Source: a virus
Taxonomy: Duplodnaviria > Caudoviricetes
Virus record (IMG/VR): IMGVR_UViG_3300032038_000005
Span: 32,001-96,000 of that record
Strand: one strand, 5' to 3'
DNA: 64,000 nt
In this document: positions 6,410 to 50,499 of the stretch, in pieces
How positions within the stretch are numbered: the first letter of the stretch is position 1
Layout of the letters: each line of letters opens with the position of its first letter
Notes under the pieces: generated by a model
Databases searched by the model: none
What the model saw: only the letters and a program-made list of their open reading frames with translations
What the model was told of the DNA's origin: nothing
Made by a program: the position numbers and the translations under genes

Positions 6410-7063
6410 ATGAGCATCTTACAGCTTCAGCAGCGCGTTTTGTCGCCGGATGCTGCAATCGACTACTCGACAGTCATCATGCAGTCTTATCCCTCATACG
6501 CAATTCAGCGCGAACCGTTCGTTGGTTTCAAGATTCTGTGCAGGGACACACAGGTCAACGGAAACTACAACATGCAGTACGGCAACTGCGAACAGAGAAT
6601 GAACCAGATTGACTCGTTTCTCCAGCAGTCACGTATTCTGATGGGAACAGGTGTTATCCTGAGAGCCACACACTTTCAGATGCCGGACGGTATTTGGGTC
6701 ATCACAATGCCGGTGCCCCGTAGCCAGGTGACGACATCTCTGAACAACCTGTTCAATGTGCTCCGTGTTCTGGAACAGCAGCTTGGTATTATTCTTACCG
6801 GTGACCAGTATGAGGTTTGTGTATCCGGTAGATGCCCGCTGAATGAAACGGAGACTATCCTTGGTTCTCTCTGTCTGCCTGAGAACTATCGCAGAATCTT
6901 ACAGCCGCCGTCAAACACACCGTACAAGGACGGCCATCTCATCCGTATCAATGACGTATATGCCTGCTTCCGCACCAGATACAGTCCTGGTATTGTTCCG
7001 GTACAGACATTGTACGAAATGTTGATGACAGTGAGCAGCTTGATTGCTGCCATCTATCGCTAA
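6410..7063 (+). CDS. hypothetical protein
   Basis: 217-aa ORF, AGGAGG SD. Confidence 0.8.
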   Translation: MSILQLQQRVLSPDAAIDYSTVIMQSYPSYAIQREPFVGFKILCRDTQVNGNYNMQYGNCEQRMNQIDSFLQQSRILMGTGVILRATHFQMPDGIWVITMPVPRSQVTTSLNNLFNVLRVLEQQLGIILTGDQYEVCVSGRCPLNETETILGSLCLPENYRRILQPPSNTPYKDGHLIRINDVYACFRTRYSPGIVPVQTLYEMLMTVSSLIAAIYR

Positions 7064-27041: not shown

Positions 27042-29420
27042 ATGGCAGATATCAATGAAGATCTGTTGCATGGATTGATTAATGATGTTTTAGGTCAAGA
27101 TGAAATTCAAGTAACTAAAGATGAGATTGGAGACACTGTCACGAATATCTTGAAACAATACAATCTCTCCACGGATTTGTCATTTGTGGAAAAGATTGCA
27201 AAGATGAAGTTTCATAACAACAAAGGAGAAGAAGTTTCCATTGAAGGAATGCCGACAGAATTACAAGACGCTGCATTCTTACCTGTGAATACAATCGCAG
27301 ATATTGCATTACGTCAAGATTTGGATATGATCATTTCACAGATTCCAGAATGGTATAACGCGATTCAAGTCACACGTGATGCCGTTTGTGAAGCAGATAC
27401 GGTAGATGGCAAATTATCAAGAGTCATCAAATTCAATCGTATCTCATTGGACGAGCACCAAAAATTGTCCAATATTGCAAAGATTGAAGATGTGGAAGAT
27501 CGTTTGGAATTAAATCATATTATCAAGAATCATATTGTATTTAACACACTGCTATATGGTGAATCCTATGTATATACCATTCCCTATGCAAAGGTGTTCT
27601 CAGATTTATACCAGTTCCGTTTAAATGCGGATGACAAACGAAAATCCGCAAGTGTGGCAAATATGTTTGAAGTCTCTTCCACTATGAAAGGATATGGCTA
27701 TGGGGAATCCGCAGTCGAAATCAGTTTAAATGATACAATTGTGCAAGAAAATGCAAAGACCAAACATCGCCGGGATCATACAATTTTTACGGAACAAGAG
27801 ATTATGGATATCAACCCAATGTATCATGGTCGAATCATCGGCGAAGATGGGTTGGAAAATAAGAAAATGCAAAGTGAATATGATAAAGAGTTTGAAGAAT
27901 ATTTAAAAGATATCGGTGACAATATTTCTTATATTGAACAAGATATTGCATTACCCGTCTTAGAACAATCGGCTCATGATTTAAAAGCTGTCTATGAAGA
28001 AAAGTATCGTGCTACAAAAAATGAGACAGACGTAAAAGCATTCTTTGAAGAAGTAGTGGATGGAAATCCAGATCCAGAACCATCTACATTTGACAAACAT
28101 TTCTCACGTATTAAGGGATGTTATATTCGTATCTTACCAGCGACGAAGTTAATTCCCATTCGTATTGACAGAACGGTGATTGGATATTACTACGTGTCTG
28201 ATCAAACTCGTACGGAAAAGAGTGGTGAACGACGCAACTCTGGATTGGGTGGATATACACTTAGAACACCATCCATTGGTTATGACACCTTTTCTCCTGA
28301 TCAAATGTTCTGTGAGAAATTAGCCACAAAGATCATCAATAATTTTGATTTAAAATTCATGCGTGATAATATCGCATTGCATGAACAAATTGTTGCCATC
28401 TTGCAATCTCACAAATTTAATGAAGCAATGCTTCGTTTCATTTATATTCCCGCAGAACATGTATGTCAGTTCTCCGTCAATAAGGATGGTATGGGATGTG
28501 GGCATTCGATGATGGAGCCCGGTTTAATCGCTGCCAGAATGTATATGTTCCTCAAGTTGTATTCTGTACTGTACCAGATTAACAATTCTCAAGTGCGTGT
28601 TTATAATCTGAGAATGTCGGGGATTGATAAGAACTATCGGCAGTTTGTACAAGATACGATCCGGAAGTTTTCACAACGTCGTGTCACTGCAAATGACATT
28701 TTCAATTATCGTTCTTCCATGACAAAGGTATCTGGCGGGTCGGAATTGGTCATGCCGTTAGGTGCAGGTGGTGAGGCACCAATTCAAATTGATTCGATTC
28801 CCGCGGCAGAAGCACCCATTTCCAATGAACTAATGGAACAGATGAAAACAGAAGCCATTAACTCCACACCTGTACCTGCTTTGTTATTGACAAATGGCGC
28901 TGTATCAGAAATCGAATTTGCCAAAGAAACCGAATTAGCAAATACCAAATTCAATTCTTTCGTGGCGGGTGTCAAGATCGAATTAAACTATGATACGACA
29001 AAGTTTTATCGACGTTTGATGAGATGGGAAACAGATATTGACCCAGAGCTATTACAAGATATGAATTTCTCATTTCATATGTCCACATCAAAAACATTGA
29101 ATGTGACATCGGAAAAAATCTCAACATTTGATGCGGTATGGCAATTGGTCATGAATACCTTTTTAACAAAAGAGGAACGACAAGAAGGAGATGGAGAACC
29201 AGGAGACACTCCCGTTGCTCGTGCATTGAAAAAGAAGCTGATTGCAAAGTATTTCCCAGAAATTGATGTGGAAGATTTTGAGATGTTGGTTGGAGAGGCA
29301 CGTGATGAGGCAAATCAACATAAATTGAATGAGATTGATAAGAACAAGAATCTATTAGATAACAACGTTCCAGATGCTGGACCGGGTGAAGGAATTGATG
29401 ATGGGGGTATGATGTTCTAA
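27042..29420 (+). CDS. portal protein (jumbo-phage type)
   Basis: 792 aa; TLLYGESYVY, KLIPIRID..IGYYY and AINSTPVP patterns typical of phiKZ-like portals; context. Confidence 0.7.
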   Translation: MADINEDLLHGLINDVLGQDEIQVTKDEIGDTVTNILKQYNLSTDLSFVEKIAKMKFHNNKGEEVSIEGMPTELQDAAFLPVNTIADIALRQDLDMIISQIPEWYNAIQVTRDAVCEADTVDGKLSRVIKFNRISLDEHQKLSNIAKIEDVEDRLELNHIIKNHIVFNTLLYGESYVYTIPYAKVFSDLYQFRLNADDKRKSASVANMFEVSSTMKGYGYGESAVEISLNDTIVQENAKTKHRRDHTIFTEQEIMDINPMYHGRIIGEDGLENKKMQSEYDKEFEEYLKDIGDNISYIEQDIALPVLEQSAHDLKAVYEEKYRATKNETDVKAFFEEVVDGNPDPEPSTFDKHFSRIKGCYIRILPATKLIPIRIDRTVIGYYYVSDQTRTEKSGERRNSGLGGYTLRTPSIGYDTFSPDQMFCEKLATKIINNFDLKFMRDNIALHEQIVAILQSHKFNEAMLRFIYIPAEHVCQFSVNKDGMGCGHSMMEPGLIAARMYMFLKLYSVLYQINNSQVRVYNLRMSGIDKNYRQFVQDTIRKFSQRRVTANDIFNYRSSMTKVSGGSELVMPLGAGGEAPIQIDSIPAAEAPISNELMEQMKTEAINSTPVPALLLTNGAVSEIEFAKETELANTKFNSFVAGVKIELNYDTTKFYRRLMRWETDIDPELLQDMNFSFHMSTSKTLNVTSEKISTFDAVWQLVMNTFLTKEERQEGDGEPGDTPVARALKKKLIAKYFPEIDVEDFEMLVGEARDEANQHKLNEIDKNKNLLDNNVPDAGPGEGIDDGGMMF

Positions 29421-31187
29421 TGGCAAAAGATAACATGACGGTTGAAAAAACTTCAACAGGTGCAATCATTCATGAACCAACATTGGAAGTGAAACGTAAA
29501 GCATTACAATATTTCTCATTACCAGATCCACAACGTGAATACTTTATTTATTCCGGATCGGATATTAATAAGAAACCAATCTTTGGACATGAACATGATG
29601 TACTATATATTTCATCTGGATTCTTAAAGATTAAAGATCCAGTCATTGATAATCTACGACTGCGTGCGACAAGAGTCACATCACGTGATGGTGCTCCAAT
29701 TGAGATTGAAATGAATCGTAAACCAAGATCACAATTACAAGTAGATTGTATCCAAATGATGGTAGAAACAGGTTATTCCAAAATGACATGTGAAGTAAAG
29801 CCTGGTGTTGACTTCCGGCACCCGTATCGAGTAATCGGTATGTAAAATTACCCTTTGAATTGCTGGGACACTTTAATGCTCATTGTACTACAACATGATG
29901 CCGAATCAGGCATGAGTGTGAATGTGACGAAAGTAAAAAGAAACAATGAGATGGTACATGGTTAAATCCTAAATACTAATAAGGAAAAATAAGTAATCAG
30001 CAGCGAAGCTCTGAACAGGAGAACGTTCAACGACTATCCATGATGGAGTAGGAATGATATTCCGAAGCGGAGGGCATCCCATTGGGATGATGATATAGTC
30101 TAAACTAAAATAAAGCGGAAAGACATTTATGGCATTATCTGTCATCGCACAACTTGGAAAGAAACCATTGATAATTGCACCAACTGCATTATTGAAGAAT
30201 CAATGGATTGAAAACTTTACGGATCTGGGTGTACCGGAATCCGATATTGCAACACGTATTTATGATGGACCAAATAAGAAAGTATGTGTTGTCACGATCT
30301 CCGCAATCGAGAATGAACTCAGAAAAGATTGGGAGGGATTGCTACATGTGTTGGCTCAAGCAAACTATGGAATCCGTATTACAGATGAAGCACATTTACA
30401 TTTGAAGGGCGTACTGAAGTTTGATGCCATTGCCAATATCAAACGTAATTACTATTTGTCAGCAACCTTAGGCAGATCCGATGAATCAGAAGATGATGTT
30501 CTTAATAGAGCTTTATTAGATGCTGACAGATTTGTTGGAGATAAGCGTTATGAAGAATATCAAGACGAATACATCAATGTGTATTTACAAGATATCTACT
30601 ACAATGCTTCACGAGAAATCTGTGACGAGCATTTCAAATATGGCAAGAAAGGTTTGATTTCAGCAACCTATTATAGAATGCTGATGGACTATCAACATGG
30701 AAAACCTTTTTACAATAATGCAATGCGTATGGTAAAGATTGCACAAAAGATCAAAGTGCAAGGAAAAGTATTATTGCTTTTACCATTACTTGATGCAATT
30801 CAACAAGTCAAAGAAGAGATGAAAAAAGATCCATACTTTGATAAATTAACCATCTCTTGTGTCGATGGACATATGAAACAATCAGAGAAGATGGAAGCAT
30901 TAGAGAAGGACATTATTTTATCAACTACCATGTCAATGGGAACAGGAGTCGACGTTTCTAACTTAGGAGCAGTTGTAAACTTTGATCAGAAGTCCTCTCT
31001 CATTATACTCGAACAGATTGTGGGTAGACTTAGAAATCGTGGATTTCAAACATACTACATTGATGTGTGTGACCATGTGAAATATGCCAGAGCATTTGAA
31101 AACTGGGGAATGAAGCGTCGTCAGTATATGCCTTACTTTCCGGGAGTTTCCAGTAAGCTTAAACTGTTACCAAAAATCATGTGTTAA
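29420..31187 (+). CDS. SF2 (UvsW-like) DEAH helicase, spliced: exon 1 29420-29808, exon 2 30116-31187 (486 aa)
   Basis: Splicing restores Walker A KPGVGKT; also DEAH, LSAT, GTGVD and QIVGRLR motifs. Confidence 0.9.
29809..30115 (+). ncRNA. group I self-splicing intron (IA2-like), no internal ORF
   Basis: Exon end ggtgU pairs with IGS Gcacc (29818-29822) via a U.G wobble; P10 ttccg/cggaa; P aattgctggga, Q aatcagcagc, R gttcaacgacta, S tgatatagtc; P3, P7, P7.1, P7.2, P8; terminal G at 30115. Confidence 0.92.
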
Positions 31188-31400: not shown

Positions 31401-31419
31401 ATACATATTATTTATTTGA
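31401..31419 (+). promoter_or_regulatory. putative early promoter
   Basis: ATACATATTATTTATTTGA followed by a ttgatata-gaaa-tatatcaa hairpin. Confidence 0.6.
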
Positions 31420-31519
31420 TATAGAAATATATCAATGTCCGCGGTGTGAGAAATCAAAATCAATCTGCTCTCACACTAATTCTGTTCATTAACTTTTACG
31501 CAGAAAGGAGAAATGTAAA

Positions 31520-32311
31520 ATGCGTATTGAGAAAATGAAAAACCCGGGTGAGAAATTGTTCACCACACCCGCGCCGTCGGATTTCGAAGAAGACCATGTT
31601 CACTGCATCAAAAATGTGGTAAACACAATGGATTACTTCGAAGCTTTTCCTGACAGCTTCGATGTCTACATGTTCGCAGCAGTCAGTGAGCCCGATATCG
31701 ATTTTAACAATGAAGACAGACTCCACTATCTCCCTGTTAATGTCAGACCTGTTAATGTCAGAAAATCCGCAATGATTTTGAAAACAAATCCGGCGGGTAA
31801 ACGCTTGGCATGGGTTCCGAGCGTCAAGTTCGTCAACCCGAACTTCATGGGATGGAATTCCATCCAATTGATGGGAATTAATATCAATTGGATGAGCACA
31901 GTGTTCGAACTGTTCTACCACCTTGTCAACGGGATGAACATCGGCCATGTGTTTGACAAGGTTATCAATGTTGTCACATACGACTTCATGTACGATGAGG
32001 CATTGGCGGAATTTGGTCATTACGATGACGCCGCAATTGAGGTATTCATTGACGGCATTATCAAGTCTGGAAATTCCAGATTGATTAAAATGTTGGTCGG
32101 TGGTGAGCATGATTTCTACATGCCTCGCATTACCAATTATCTCCTCGACAACCGGTTAGTCTCCATCGTGTGGAAGATGAAGGAGACAGTGTATCTCGAC
32201 ATGGTTCAGTATTACAATGAACATGGTCAGTATGAAAAACAGCTCCAGTTAACGGACTACTGGAGTCAGAATCCCGACAAACCAGATCCGATGGACAAAT
32301 TCAATCTCTGA
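31520..32311 (+). CDS. hypothetical early protein
   Basis: 263 aa, AAGGAG SD, own promoter and terminator (32345-32380). Confidence 0.8.
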   Translation: MRIEKMKNPGEKLFTTPAPSDFEEDHVHCIKNVVNTMDYFEAFPDSFDVYMFAAVSEPDIDFNNEDRLHYLPVNVRPVNVRKSAMILKTNPAGKRLAWVPSVKFVNPNFMGWNSIQLMGININWMSTVFELFYHLVNGMNIGHVFDKVINVVTYDFMYDEALAEFGHYDDAAIEVFIDGIIKSGNSRLIKMLVGGEHDFYMPRITNYLLDNRLVSIVWKMKETVYLDMVQYYNEHGQYEKQLQLTDYWSQNPDKPDPMDKFNL

Positions 32312-32419
32312 TCATATATCAGAGATATCAGATTGGGTCTAACAAACAAACTCCTTTCATTCGGGAGTTTGTTTTTCTTGTGTTCTTTTTGTATGTTACC
32401 GATTATTTTAAATCTTCAT

Positions 32420-32438
32420 ATAAATATAATTAATATGA
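32420..32438 (+). promoter_or_regulatory. putative early promoter
   Basis: ATAAATATAATTAATATGA. Confidence 0.65.
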
Positions 32439-32563
32439 TATGAATAAGTATCACTTATTACATCGACAAGATGTTCCATAACAGTATGGCATATCACATC
32501 CACGTAGACTTCCATAAGGGTATCTAGTCAATATCCGTTTGCGGGATGCACACCAGGGGGTGT
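32436..32563 (+). ncRNA. conserved structured 5' leader RNA, copy 1
   Basis: Four-way junction, second domain and SD hairpin; stems covary with the copy at 49910-50044. Confidence 0.7.
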
Positions 32564-32567
32564 TATT

Positions 32568-33032
32568 ATGGAAACAAAGACATTCACATATGGTAGCTAT
32601 AAAGTTACCGTGGATCTCGAACCATTTAAGCGGTTCGATGGAGAAGAAGCCAGCGTCTTCTATGCCCATGTTAAATGGGTCGAAACAGCTGGATGGTGGT
32701 CTTACAAGGGCACATTCGAGATGCATTTCTGGATCGATGGGAATACCGGAGATCTCTGGGGTTCCCGTGAATACACAGTGCAGCACCAGATCTCGAATTC
32801 TCTGTCCATAAAATGGGGCTTTATCGAGCTCTGGATGCTCGACAGAGTTCCGGCACACATCATTGCTGGATTCATCCGGGGTGACGTTAAACAGTTCGAC
32901 GAAGTTGTGACAACTCAGTCACAGCTCAATGAACTGATTGCGATCCTTGCCAATGCCGGGGAACATGATGCTGAGGTTATCCTCATGAATCATTTCGCAG
33001 GCAGGTTTGGACCGCCGGACCTCACACTCTGA
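32568..33032 (+). CDS. hypothetical early protein (cassette 1 cargo)
   Basis: 154-aa ORF, GGGGGTG SD. Confidence 0.8.
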   Translation: METKTFTYGSYKVTVDLEPFKRFDGEEASVFYAHVKWVETAGWWSYKGTFEMHFWIDGNTGDLWGSREYTVQHQISNSLSIKWGFIELWMLDRVPAHIIAGFIRGDVKQFDEVVTTQSQLNELIAILANAGEHDAEVILMNHFAGRFGPPDLTL

Positions 33033-33039
33033 TGAAATG

Positions 33040-33113
33040 AATAACCGGGGGAGATCTCTGGGAGCTTGCTGTTTGTCGGCCCGACGCTCCATTCTCCCTC
33101 GGTTATTTTTTTC
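33040..33113 (+). terminator. terminator stem enclosing a conserved structured 3' element, copy 1
   Basis: 15-bp outer stem plus T-run; inner ggagc-ttgctgttt-gtcg(gcc)cgac-gctcc shared with 50510-50585. Confidence 0.7.
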
Positions 33114-49747: not shown

Positions 49748-49893
49748 ATCCTTATTCTCCTTTACTATAAATTTGGTTTTGTATTAGAATCTATGGAATC
49801 GGATATAGAGCCTAAACAATTATAATTTTGTGTATTATAAGATACTATATTTGAACGCCCCATATGGGGCGTTCTATCATTTTGATTTTTCAT

Positions 49894-49912
49894 ATATATA
49901 TAATTAATATGA
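49894..49912 (+). promoter_or_regulatory. putative early promoter
   Basis: ATATATATAATTAATATGA, one mismatch to 32420-32438. Confidence 0.65.
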
Positions 49913-50044
49913 TATGAAGAAGTGAAATGCTTCTTACATCTCGTCCCAGAGGTGGTTCCTATACTGTTAGGCATATCACATTCACTTGGGCATTGAACTA
50001 AGGCGACTTGTCATCGTCAGTCTAAGGGATGCACCGTGGAGGTG
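49910..50044 (+). ncRNA. conserved structured 5' leader RNA, copy 2
   Basis: Same stem order as 32436-32563, with compensatory changes. Confidence 0.7.
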
Positions 50045-50049
50045 ATTTT

Positions 50050-50499
50050 ATGTTCGATTATCTCAACCCCTATCTGTTCGGGGACAAAGAACAGGATGAT
50101 GTGCCGGAGGCTGTGCCTACTCCGACGCAGCAGAACCCCAGCATCAACTTCAACGTTAATGCTGAGGCGGTAACTGCCTTAGTTAGCGGGTTGGTGGCCA
50201 TTGCCGGCGCCTTTGCGAAAGCGAAGGCACAGGTACCCGCTGCACCGGCAGCACCCGCTGCACCGGCAGCACCCGCTGCTGATGACAACCTCCGTCAGGA
50301 GGTAGCCCAGCTGCAGTCTGGAATGAAATATCTCATTCAGCGGCAGGCAACCGCTGACAGAGATGCAGCCTACGATGCCGCAGAAAAAGCCTTCCAGGCA
50401 GCTGTGACAAAAGACCCCTCCAAAGCAATGGAGGCACTGGCTGGGTACAATGCAGCACGCAAGGCCGCTGACGAAGTCTACCACAAGTTGGTAGGCTAA
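50050..50499 (+). CDS. Ala-rich hypothetical early protein (cassette 2 cargo)
   Basis: GGAGGTG SD; 149 aa; hydrophobic helix followed by a PAA linker. Confidence 0.8.
   Translation: MFDYLNPYLFGDKEQDDVPEAVPTPTQQNPSINFNVNAEAVTALVSGLVAIAGAFAKAKAQVPAAPAAPAAPAAPAADDNLRQEVAQLQSGMKYLIQRQATADRDAAYDAAEKAFQAAVTKDPSKAMEALAGYNAARKAADEVYHKLVG
50235..50279. repeat. 18-bp tandem repeat x2.5 (PAAPAA)
   Basis: acccgctgcaccggcagc repeated. Confidence 0.9.

Follow-up and report, generated by a model that had tools for sequence, protein, structure and literature searches.

Structured, modular 5' leaders on two early messages of an uncultured bovine-rumen jumbo phage

Messages of Bacillota can be stabilised by stem-loops at their 5' ends, as in the ermC and aprE leaders and the stabiliser of phage SP82, and phages control translation through RNA operators such as the T4 gene 32 pseudoknot, the T4 RegA sites and the coat-protein hairpins of MS2 and PP7. 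In jumbo phages with their own RNA polymerases (RNAPs) post-transcriptional control is almost unexplored, and the transcriptome maps of AR9 and phiKZ in the literature describe promoters and short leaders rather than conserved RNA folds. The early promoters that the injected virion RNAP of AR9 reads have been mapped experimentally and follow the consensus AAATATATATTAT-N6-G+1 (PMC5312081), and 'promoter-early stem-loop' (PeSL) cassettes have been described in T4-type phages (PMC2839356, PMC4122927). Two related leaders were analysed here in a 64-kb stretch of DNA (the window), bases 32001-96000 of the 202-kb IMG/VR virus record IMGVR_UViG_3300032038_000005. They occupy window positions 32437-32567 (131 nt, copy 1) and 49911-50049 (139 nt, copy 2), are 83% identical, and are best read as paralogous, cis-acting, highly structured 5' untranslated regions (UTRs) of two monocistronic early mRNAs, with a conserved, strand-specific and modular fold directly upstream of the Shine-Dalgarno (SD) sequence.

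The secondary structure of each leader was predicted singly and from the alignment of the two copies. Whether folding began at 32436/49910 or at the inferred start of transcription (+1, see below), the minimum free energy (MFE) and centroid structures had the same architecture, in which a four-way junction (P1 to P4) is followed by a long bulged hairpin with a CUWGUCA loop (P5 to P7) and then by a small hairpin over the SD. The elements of the two copies are placed as follows.

32437..32495, plus strand: domain 1 of copy 1, four-way junction, from fold and alignment; P1 32437-42/32490-95, P2 32443-49/32453-59, P3 32460-64/32470-74, P4 32476-80/32485-89
32497..32548, plus strand: domain 2 of copy 1; P5 32497-501/32544-48, bulged A 32502, P6 32503-09/32537-43, 5' internal loop 32510-17, P7 32518-23/32531-36, CUAGUCA loop 32524-30
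32550..32563, plus strand: SD hairpin of copy 1 (ACACC-AGGG-GGUGU); SD 32556-62, ATG 32568
49911..49977, plus strand: domain 1 of copy 2, four-way junction, from fold and alignment; P1 49911-16/49972-77, P2 49917-23/49929-35, P3 49937-42/49949-54, P4 49958-61/49968-71
49979..50031, plus strand: domain 2 of copy 2; P5 49979-83/50027-31, bulged A 49984, P6 49985-91/50020-26, P7 50002-06/50014-18, CUUGUCA loop 50007-13
50032..50044, plus strand: SD hairpin of copy 2 (CACC-GUGGA-GGUG); ATG 50050

Folding from the inferred +1 gave an MFE of -39.2 kcal/mol for copy 1 (z -3.7) and -42.7 kcal/mol for copy 2 (z -2.3), and the antisense strands folded more poorly (z -1.9 and -0.5, respectively). Because many of the pairs are G.U and the antisense folds are worse, the fold is specific to the plus strand. 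A shared architecture with compensatory changes had been claimed for both stretches in a sequence-only reading of the window, and the single folds, RNAalifold and the pair counts all agree with that claim. RNAalifold, which that reading had proposed as a check, recovered P1, P2, P4, P5/P6, P7 and the SD hairpin from the alignment of the copies. Seven of the 42 modelled pairs had changed on both sides (three of them in P7, two in P4 and one each in P2 and P6) and a further six on one side, all of them canonical; 97.6% of the cells were paired and the unpaired cells were confined to a re-registered P3. One of 500 shuffled controls reached these pairing and covariation values, and sliding the partners by 1-3 columns lowered the pairing to 30-52%. 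With the homologue from a relative (G006, described below) included in a model-fitted alignment, 14 pairs had changed on both sides and none of 500 shuffles reached the values.

Some helices differed in detail from their first description. P1 had been given as 7 bp (tgatatg:catatca); the helix stands, but with a start at G32437/G49911 its first U would be untranscribed, leaving the 6 bp GAUAUG:CAUAUC. P3 forms in both copies, but it does not covary column by column, since its register is shifted with one outer pair lost and two inner pairs gained. The stem of P7 and its conserved CUWGUCA loop were retained, the stem of copy 2 including a G.U pair. The linkers of the four-way junction measure 0-3 nt and are not conserved between the copies, the loops of P2, P3 and P4 measure 3-6 nt, and the linkers between P1, P5 and the SD hairpin are 0 or 1 nt long. 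When the P7 loop was compared with the P3 and P4 loops, J6/7 and the SD spacer, and the 5' UTR with the 3' UTR, no tertiary or long-range pairing conserved in copy 1, copy 2 and G006 together was found by eye or with RNAduplex. The P4 loops of copy 1 (ACAGU, 32481-32485) and copy 2 (ACUGU, 49963-49967) are exactly complementary, and the P3 loop of copy 1 (GACAA, 32465-32469) has its complement, UUGUC, within the P7 loop of copy 2 (50008-50012). The two mRNAs might in principle kiss through these loops; with two sequences the complementarity was treated as coincidence.

The phage that carries these leaders is an uncultured bovine-rumen jumbo phage of a lineage with two multisubunit RNAPs, and its nearest cultured relatives are the AR9/PBS1-like phages of Bacillota. 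The record codes for a split multisubunit RNAP subunit, a large terminase and a helicase with a group I intron; the best cultured matches of the RNAP subunit were in Bacillus phage vB_BsuM-Goe21 (AR9/PBS1-like), Listeria phage LPJP1 and Staphylococcus jumbo phages, at ~29% identity. Near-identical DNA is contained in bovine gut metagenomes, and the sequencing runs listed for two queries were of DNA from bovine gut metagenomes, with no RNA run among them. The host is probably Gram-positive, and the SD is complementary to AUCACCUCC. Three early promoters were located in the window.

32399..32436, plus strand: early promoter of copy 1; TATAAT at 32425-32430, then TAATAT, then +1; 10 of 13 positions of the AR9 consensus, followed by N6 and G
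49873..49910, plus strand: early promoter of copy 2; 11 of 13 positions of the AR9 consensus, then TAATAT, then +1
31405..31519, plus strand: third early promoter; inferred +1 G31418, hairpin GAUAUA-GAAA-UAUAUC at 31418-31433

The 21 bases upstream that are common to both copies (ATATAATTAATATGATATGAA) are the core of an AT-rich motif of ~45 bp, which was found again in the phage's own genome and many times in relatives reached via the RNAP subunit and via the motif itself. It occurs at ~20-30 copies per genome across this clade, and at ~19-35 in one complete relative. The 13-mers that end 6 bases ahead of G32437 and G49911 agree with the AR9 consensus at 10 and 11 of 13 positions and have the identical spacing to G, a TATAAT hexamer lies 6 bases upstream of the same G, and no sigma-70 -35 box accompanies the promoter of either copy. 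In the AR9-like genome of Goe21, 34 AR9-type promoter sites were found, and their leaders often start with GAU(A) as the two leaders do. The consensus match with its N6-G spacing, the starts of the Goe21 leaders and the position of the hexamer all point to G32437 and G49911 as the probable +1. The third promoter, with its 102-nt leader, precedes an open reading frame (ORF) at 31520-32311.

The box is best described as a clade-wide AT-rich early promoter resembling the virion-RNAP promoters of AR9, and its recognition by a virion RNAP is predicted. Like the early promoters of AR9/PBS1-like and phiKZ-like phages it is a long, AT-rich and strongly conserved motif present in tens of copies per genome, in a phage that codes for split multisubunit RNAP subunits. 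With those of AR9 it shares 10-11 of 13 positions, the same 6-nt gap to a G start followed by AUA, and the lack of a -35 box, so that the features of an AR9-type early promoter (consensus with N6 and G, repetition over the genome, split RNAP subunits) are found together. It differs from the AR9 type in its longer consensus (~45 bp), and the RNAP is only ~29% identical.

P1 is invariant between the two copies because its 5' arm lies within the promoter and initial transcribed consensus, and the support for its pairing comes from the other leaders of the clade. Of 35 unique early leaders of the clade, 24 open at +1 with an unbroken helix of no fewer than 6 bp, compared to 18% of shuffled and 30% of Goe21 leaders; AR9-like leaders thus differ from those of the rumen clade in having no enrichment of a 5'-terminal helix. 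The commonest 5' hairpin of the clade is GAUAUA-GAAA-UAUAUC, and variants of arm and loop keep the helix (GAUAU-GAAA-AUAUC; GAUAUG...CAUAUC; GAUAGACAU...AUGUCUAUC). The arms covary across the clade, as in GAUAAAGA/UCUUUAUC, GACAAUAGA/UCUAUUUGUC and GAUAAGGG/CUCUUAUC. If transcription starts at G32437 and G49911 the helix begins at the 5' end in both leaders, and P1 would then be the 5'-terminal helix carried by most early mRNAs of the clade. The cloverleaf is this clade hairpin with its loop given over to P2, P3 and P4, and not an autonomous domain; its full arrangement was found by the full-length model (R1) in the phage's own genome only.

Early leaders of 236-255 nt occur in the relatives (L055, 1536-1790 of the complete relative G002; L100 of G004; L168; L125), and these are predicted to form large multi-branch domains closed by the 5'-terminal GAUAAAGA... 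arm. Because of these multi-branch domains, complex leaders are a theme of the clade and not peculiar to the two genes of the window. In phiKZ the 5' UTRs are mostly 31-40 nt (PMC8244752), whereas leaders of the rumen clade reach 130-255 nt and are structured. The whole clade of uncultured rumen phages appears to begin its early messages with a base-paired 5' end, and appears to build its long leaders from reusable hairpin modules.

As the 5' arm of P1 lies inside the conserved promoter and initial transcribed sequence, the inverted repeat from TGATAT could instead be a signal in DNA, read as a cruciform, a single-stranded hairpin or a symmetric protein site within a virion-RNAP promoter, compared here with the hairpin promoters of coliphage N4. 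The other register of the AR9 alignment would place +1 in the GAAA loop, which suits such a signal. The arms are however 47-55 nt apart in the two cloverleaf copies and 3 to >20 nt apart elsewhere, unlike a protein or cruciform site, and the G.U pairs (as in the L044 leader, with many in P2 to P7) would be C.A mismatches on the other strand. Models of the AR9 type and of the -10 type both set +1 at the G that opens the helix. A signal at the level of DNA is therefore considered very improbable.

Domain 2 and the SD hairpin form a unit that occurs without the cloverleaf, so the leader is modular. A third leader was found with R1 in the relative G006 (IMGVR_UViG_3300032038_000053; L211, 1501-1635) at 19.8 bits and E 0.002. 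It has a plain 5' hairpin in place of the cloverleaf, followed by P5, the bulged A and a 7-bp P6 with wholly different base pairs. The internal loop holds an additional hairpin, a GAACUAAGGC run as in copy 2 and CUAAGG ahead of P7, and the P7-like stem has one A.C mismatch, a CAGUCA cap and the same 3' bulged A. A CAC...GUG hairpin lies over the SD, GUGAUUUUAUGUUC surrounds the start codon as in copy 1 and copy 2, and the leader precedes a 74-residue ORF unrelated to those behind copy 1 and copy 2.

The unpaired nucleotides conserved in domain 2 are those of J6/7 (..UAAGG) and the P7 loop, among the few sequences compared. The apical motif, consisting of ARGG, a 5-bp stem, a CUAGUCA loop and often a 3' bulged A, was also found in two leaders of G002 and in one homologue in G004, and like the longer modules it stands only ahead of orphan ORFs that are unrelated; one of the G002 leaders (G002a) is enclosed by helices resembling P6 and P5 (domain-2 model R2 with filters off, E 0.026). 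The two strands of the 202-kb genome together contain 47 CTWGTCA sites, which gives ~0.4 expected in ~3 kb of leaders, and the motif is found in four independent leader lineages, each with at least five complementary flanking pairs. In this the element resembles the phage translational operators, in that early messages have, close to the ribosome-binding site, a hairpin with a bulged A and a conserved loop, whose sequence stays fixed while the stems covary. It differs in its distance from the SD, which it precedes by 20-40 nt instead of covering it, and in having no known binding protein.

Domain 2 is followed in both copies by the small conserved hairpin in which CACC pairs with GGUG of the SD, as the sequence-only reading had stated. 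That reading had further proposed an RNA that binds a ligand or a protein. A multi-helix, covarying fold directly upstream of an occluded SD, with unpaired nucleotides partly conserved in J6/7 and the P7 loop, is what a riboswitch would present if the four-way junction, domain 2 or both were the aptamer for a metabolite or ion and the SD hairpin were the expression platform. A riboswitch is nonetheless quite improbable, because the 0-3-nt junction linkers are unconserved between the copies, G006 does without the cloverleaf, and the SD hairpin folds locally on its own, with no alternative pairing conserved on inspection of copy 1, copy 2 and G006. In addition the downstream genes are three unrelated orphans without family assignment or signature of a metabolic pathway, and no riboswitch of Rfam matched the leaders even at E up to 10. 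The small-molecule part of the proposal is thus considered unlikely, for want of conserved unpaired junction nucleotides and of an exclusive expression platform, and binding of a protein to the CUWGUCA hairpin is a reasonable idea on the model of a fixed loop.

The cloverleaf-like shape, and a 5-bp stem with a 7-nt loop that has the geometry of an anticodon arm and a conserved U at position 2, would also suit an independent non-coding RNA (tRNA-like, a ribozyme or a processed small RNA) that merely precedes the ORFs. The sizes of the arms and loops are unlike those of tRNA, ARAGORN found no tRNA gene in the window, and Rfam gave no ribozyme or small-RNA match. Between the fold and the SD there is no terminator, and only 0-1 nt links the fold to the SD hairpin, which leaves a separate RNA species highly unlikely.

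The leader is an RNA family without a described match, narrow in distribution, although structured cis-acting leaders of phage mRNAs are already known as a general kind. With Rfam 15 at gathering thresholds the sole match in the window was a group I intron at 29798-30113, with none on the leaders, and at E up to 10 both leaders gave only chance-level snoRNA and miRNA matches of at most 18 bits. R1 found nothing in the genomes G001-G005 or G007-G013, and R2 with default filters found only its two source copies among 14 records. A pattern scan of a metagenome collection for domain 2 of the type of copy 2 and G006 returned only the G006 phage again. The cloverleaf pattern had a single match in IMG/VR, in a giant-virus contig, which was judged to be chance. 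The pattern GGCAG-CUAGUCA-CUGU had 15 matches in unrelated IMG/VR contigs, a chance number for 16 bases, and these were rejected as relatives; among them are one in a tRNA spacer and some downstream of -10 boxes, and Rfam finds only tRNAs at these sites. Mimicry of an anticodon (NGU for Thr, or the UGU motif of tRNA-guanine transglycosylase) was also rejected, as position 37 is C and the register is wrong.

Each leader stands in a cassette with a terminator before and after a single ORF, and both transcription units are monocistronic. The flanking features are listed below.

32344..32374, plus strand: intrinsic terminator of the upstream unit, just ahead of the copy 1 promoter; 12-bp stem, then T run
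32568..33032, plus strand: orphan ORF P0001, 154 residues; the sole homologue found, 99% identical, lies on two further metagenome contigs
33040..33113, plus strand: branched terminator of cassette 1; homologue in cassette 2
49853..49874, plus strand: GC-rich terminator-like hairpin just ahead of the copy 2 promoter
50050..50499, plus strand: orphan ORF P0002, 149 residues; hydrophobic segment, PAA repeat, helical C-terminal part; unrelated to P0001
50510..50585, plus strand: branched terminator of cassette 2

No homologue was found for P0002, both P0001 and P0002 are absent from G001-G003, and searches of Pfam, PHROGs and ESM Atlas gave nothing usable on the function of either. The leaders of the 99% identical P0001 copies differ from copy 1 by one loop base and one promoter base. 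An upstream ORF within the leader was rejected, since its 13 codons in copy 1 against 3 in copy 2 show that it is not conserved. Both branched terminators consist of an outer stem AAUAACCGGG...CCGGUUAUU with a U run, around a conserved inner fold GGGAGC-wUGCUG...GUCGGCCyGAC-GCUCC; the terminator of G006 is different and long, and likewise contains UGCUG.

This layout of terminator, early promoter, leader with SD, ORFan and terminator, repeated in the genome, is that of a PeSL-type cassette. As in the T4-type phages, a terminator hairpin, a strong early promoter and an SD are conserved over at least 100 bp and flank unrelated ORFans that differ between relatives. The stem-loop of PeSL differs in being a terminator upstream of a sigma-70 promoter, whereas the folds of the rumen phage are transcribed downstream of a promoter of the phage-RNAP type and covary at the level of RNA. 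The leader is thereby a testable case of promoter- and UTR-framed ORFan cassettes beyond the T4 group. The conserved parts might themselves be homology arms by which orphan ORF cassettes are shuffled, with the RNA fold secondary. In keeping with such a scaffold, conserved flanks surround unrelated ORFans twice in this genome and once in a relative, a terminator hairpin lies directly ahead of each promoter, promoter repeats are many per genome, and the syntenic site of G002 upstream of the terminase gene holds other early-promoter cassettes and no homologue of P0001. Homology arms would not however give an excess of pair-preserving substitutions, and leaders that are only ~83% identical are a poor substrate for recent homologous exchange. 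As the full explanation a recombination scaffold is improbable; recombination may explain the spread of the cassettes but not the compensatory substitutions or the maintenance of the helices, and is compatible with control by the leader RNA rather than exclusive of it.

The explanation preferred here, with a probability of roughly 55%, is a modular cis-acting leader that protects the 5' end, presents an operator-like hairpin to a shared trans-acting factor and occludes the SD. Transcription would start at G32437/G49911, 6 bases past the ~45-bp AT-rich promoter. In the first part of the transcript a helix would bury the extreme 5' end, with its loop swapped for three hairpins to give a tightly stacked four-way junction. 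The second part would be a bulged hairpin whose apex, formed by ARGG, a 5-6-bp stem and the CUWGUCA loop, is a sequence-conserved recognition module, and in the third a short hairpin would pair an anti-SD-like CACC with GGUG of the SD. The 5' helix and the scarcity of single-stranded linkers may shield the mRNA from 5'-end-dependent and endonucleolytic decay, and the CACC:GGUG hairpin may throttle initiation. The CUWGUCA hairpin would be the operator for the trans-acting factor, most likely a phage protein, which would tune or shut off a small regulon of early orphan genes. As three unrelated proteins stand behind the same leader, the regulator is not the gene product itself; autogenous control, unlike in the phage operators, is excluded, and what remains is a shared trans-acting factor or none.

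A purely structural role needs no such factor, the leader and branched terminator serving to armour the mRNA against RNases of host and phage and to provide a constant context for ribosome binding. Linkers of 0-1 nt leave hardly any single-stranded RNA among P1, P5 and the SD hairpin, the 5' end would be paired from +1, elaborate terminators are common to both cassettes, and one frame serves unrelated ORFs, all of which favours a stabiliser or insulator. Bacillus mRNAs are known to be stabilised by 5'-terminal stem-loops, and the likeness to the stabilisers of Bacillota lies in a helix that, counted from the probable +1, begins no more than a few nucleotides into the message, a strong SD close behind and a Gram-positive host, which here is the probable one. 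A structured 5' UTR and effects of the 5' and 3' UTRs are among the features described for hbs mRNA, to which the same likeness extends in this respect (PMC5737220). The helix of the rumen clade differs in being clade-wide, constrained in sequence and fused to the promoter; in the two leaders it is also expanded into a four-way junction and joined to a sequence-specific hairpin. A stabiliser would not need a sequence-conserved 7-nt loop and ARGG kept over wholly different stems in four leader lineages, and the commonest 5' hairpin is weak. Because recognition sites typically show a fixed loop on stems that covary freely, an operator with a stabiliser is preferred over a stabiliser only, which is given an appreciable but minor chance.

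Several points weigh against the combined operator and stabiliser. The canonical 5' hairpin is thermodynamically weak (-2.8 kcal/mol), which makes protection by stability alone doubtful. There are only two full-length homologues besides near-identical metagenome copies, and the match to G006 is weak, with an A.C mismatch in P7 and a loop of 6 nt. The MFE folds of G002b and G004b leave out the CUAGUCA hairpin, and conservation does not extend to the helix around it. Against an SD:anti-SD duplex of 9 nt the short SD hairpin may be little of an obstacle, the start site is placed by analogy with a phage that shares only ~29% identity in the RNAP subunit, and no candidate binding protein was identified. 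If the modules are operators, they define a phage regulon whose RNA-binding regulator is still missing; as stabilisers, they would offer compact natural parts with which expression in Gram-positive hosts could be kept stable and insulated.

A second recurrent module of the early leaders is a hairpin with the loop (U)UGAAUGCAUAUAUAC, found in L130, L204, L199, L168 and L125 on stems that differ and are complementary. A version in the phage's own genome has the loop UGAAUGCAUAG and lies outside the window (G000:C1 ~6410-6430). The UGAAUGCAUA hairpin is counted as a leader module beside the 5' hairpin and domain 2. More broadly, the early transcripts of the virion RNAP might carry a combinatorial RNA 'address code', with a 5'-terminal GNRA hairpin on nearly all and optional hairpin modules (CUAGUCA and UGAAUGCAUAUAUAC loops) read by dedicated phage factors so as to sort, time, localise or silence subsets of mRNA. 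The cloverleaf leaders would be its most elaborate words, though such a code is speculative and has a small chance of being correct.

Another early leader of the same phage, on the minus strand at G000:C1 ~175380-175470, can form the mutually exclusive hairpins CUAUUACAU...AUGUAAUAG or GCUUGC...GCAAGC, followed by a UCAUC:GGUGA hairpin over the SD; because of this arrangement it is a candidate switch. Elsewhere in the window the group I intron at 29798-30113 (RF00028, 67 bits) divides an SF2 helicase gene into ORFs 29420-29845 and 30129-31187. The terminase homologues in G002 and G004 (L225, L226) are 78% identical over a 723-residue match reported with one in-frame TGA, which could be an annotation edge, recoding or a break.

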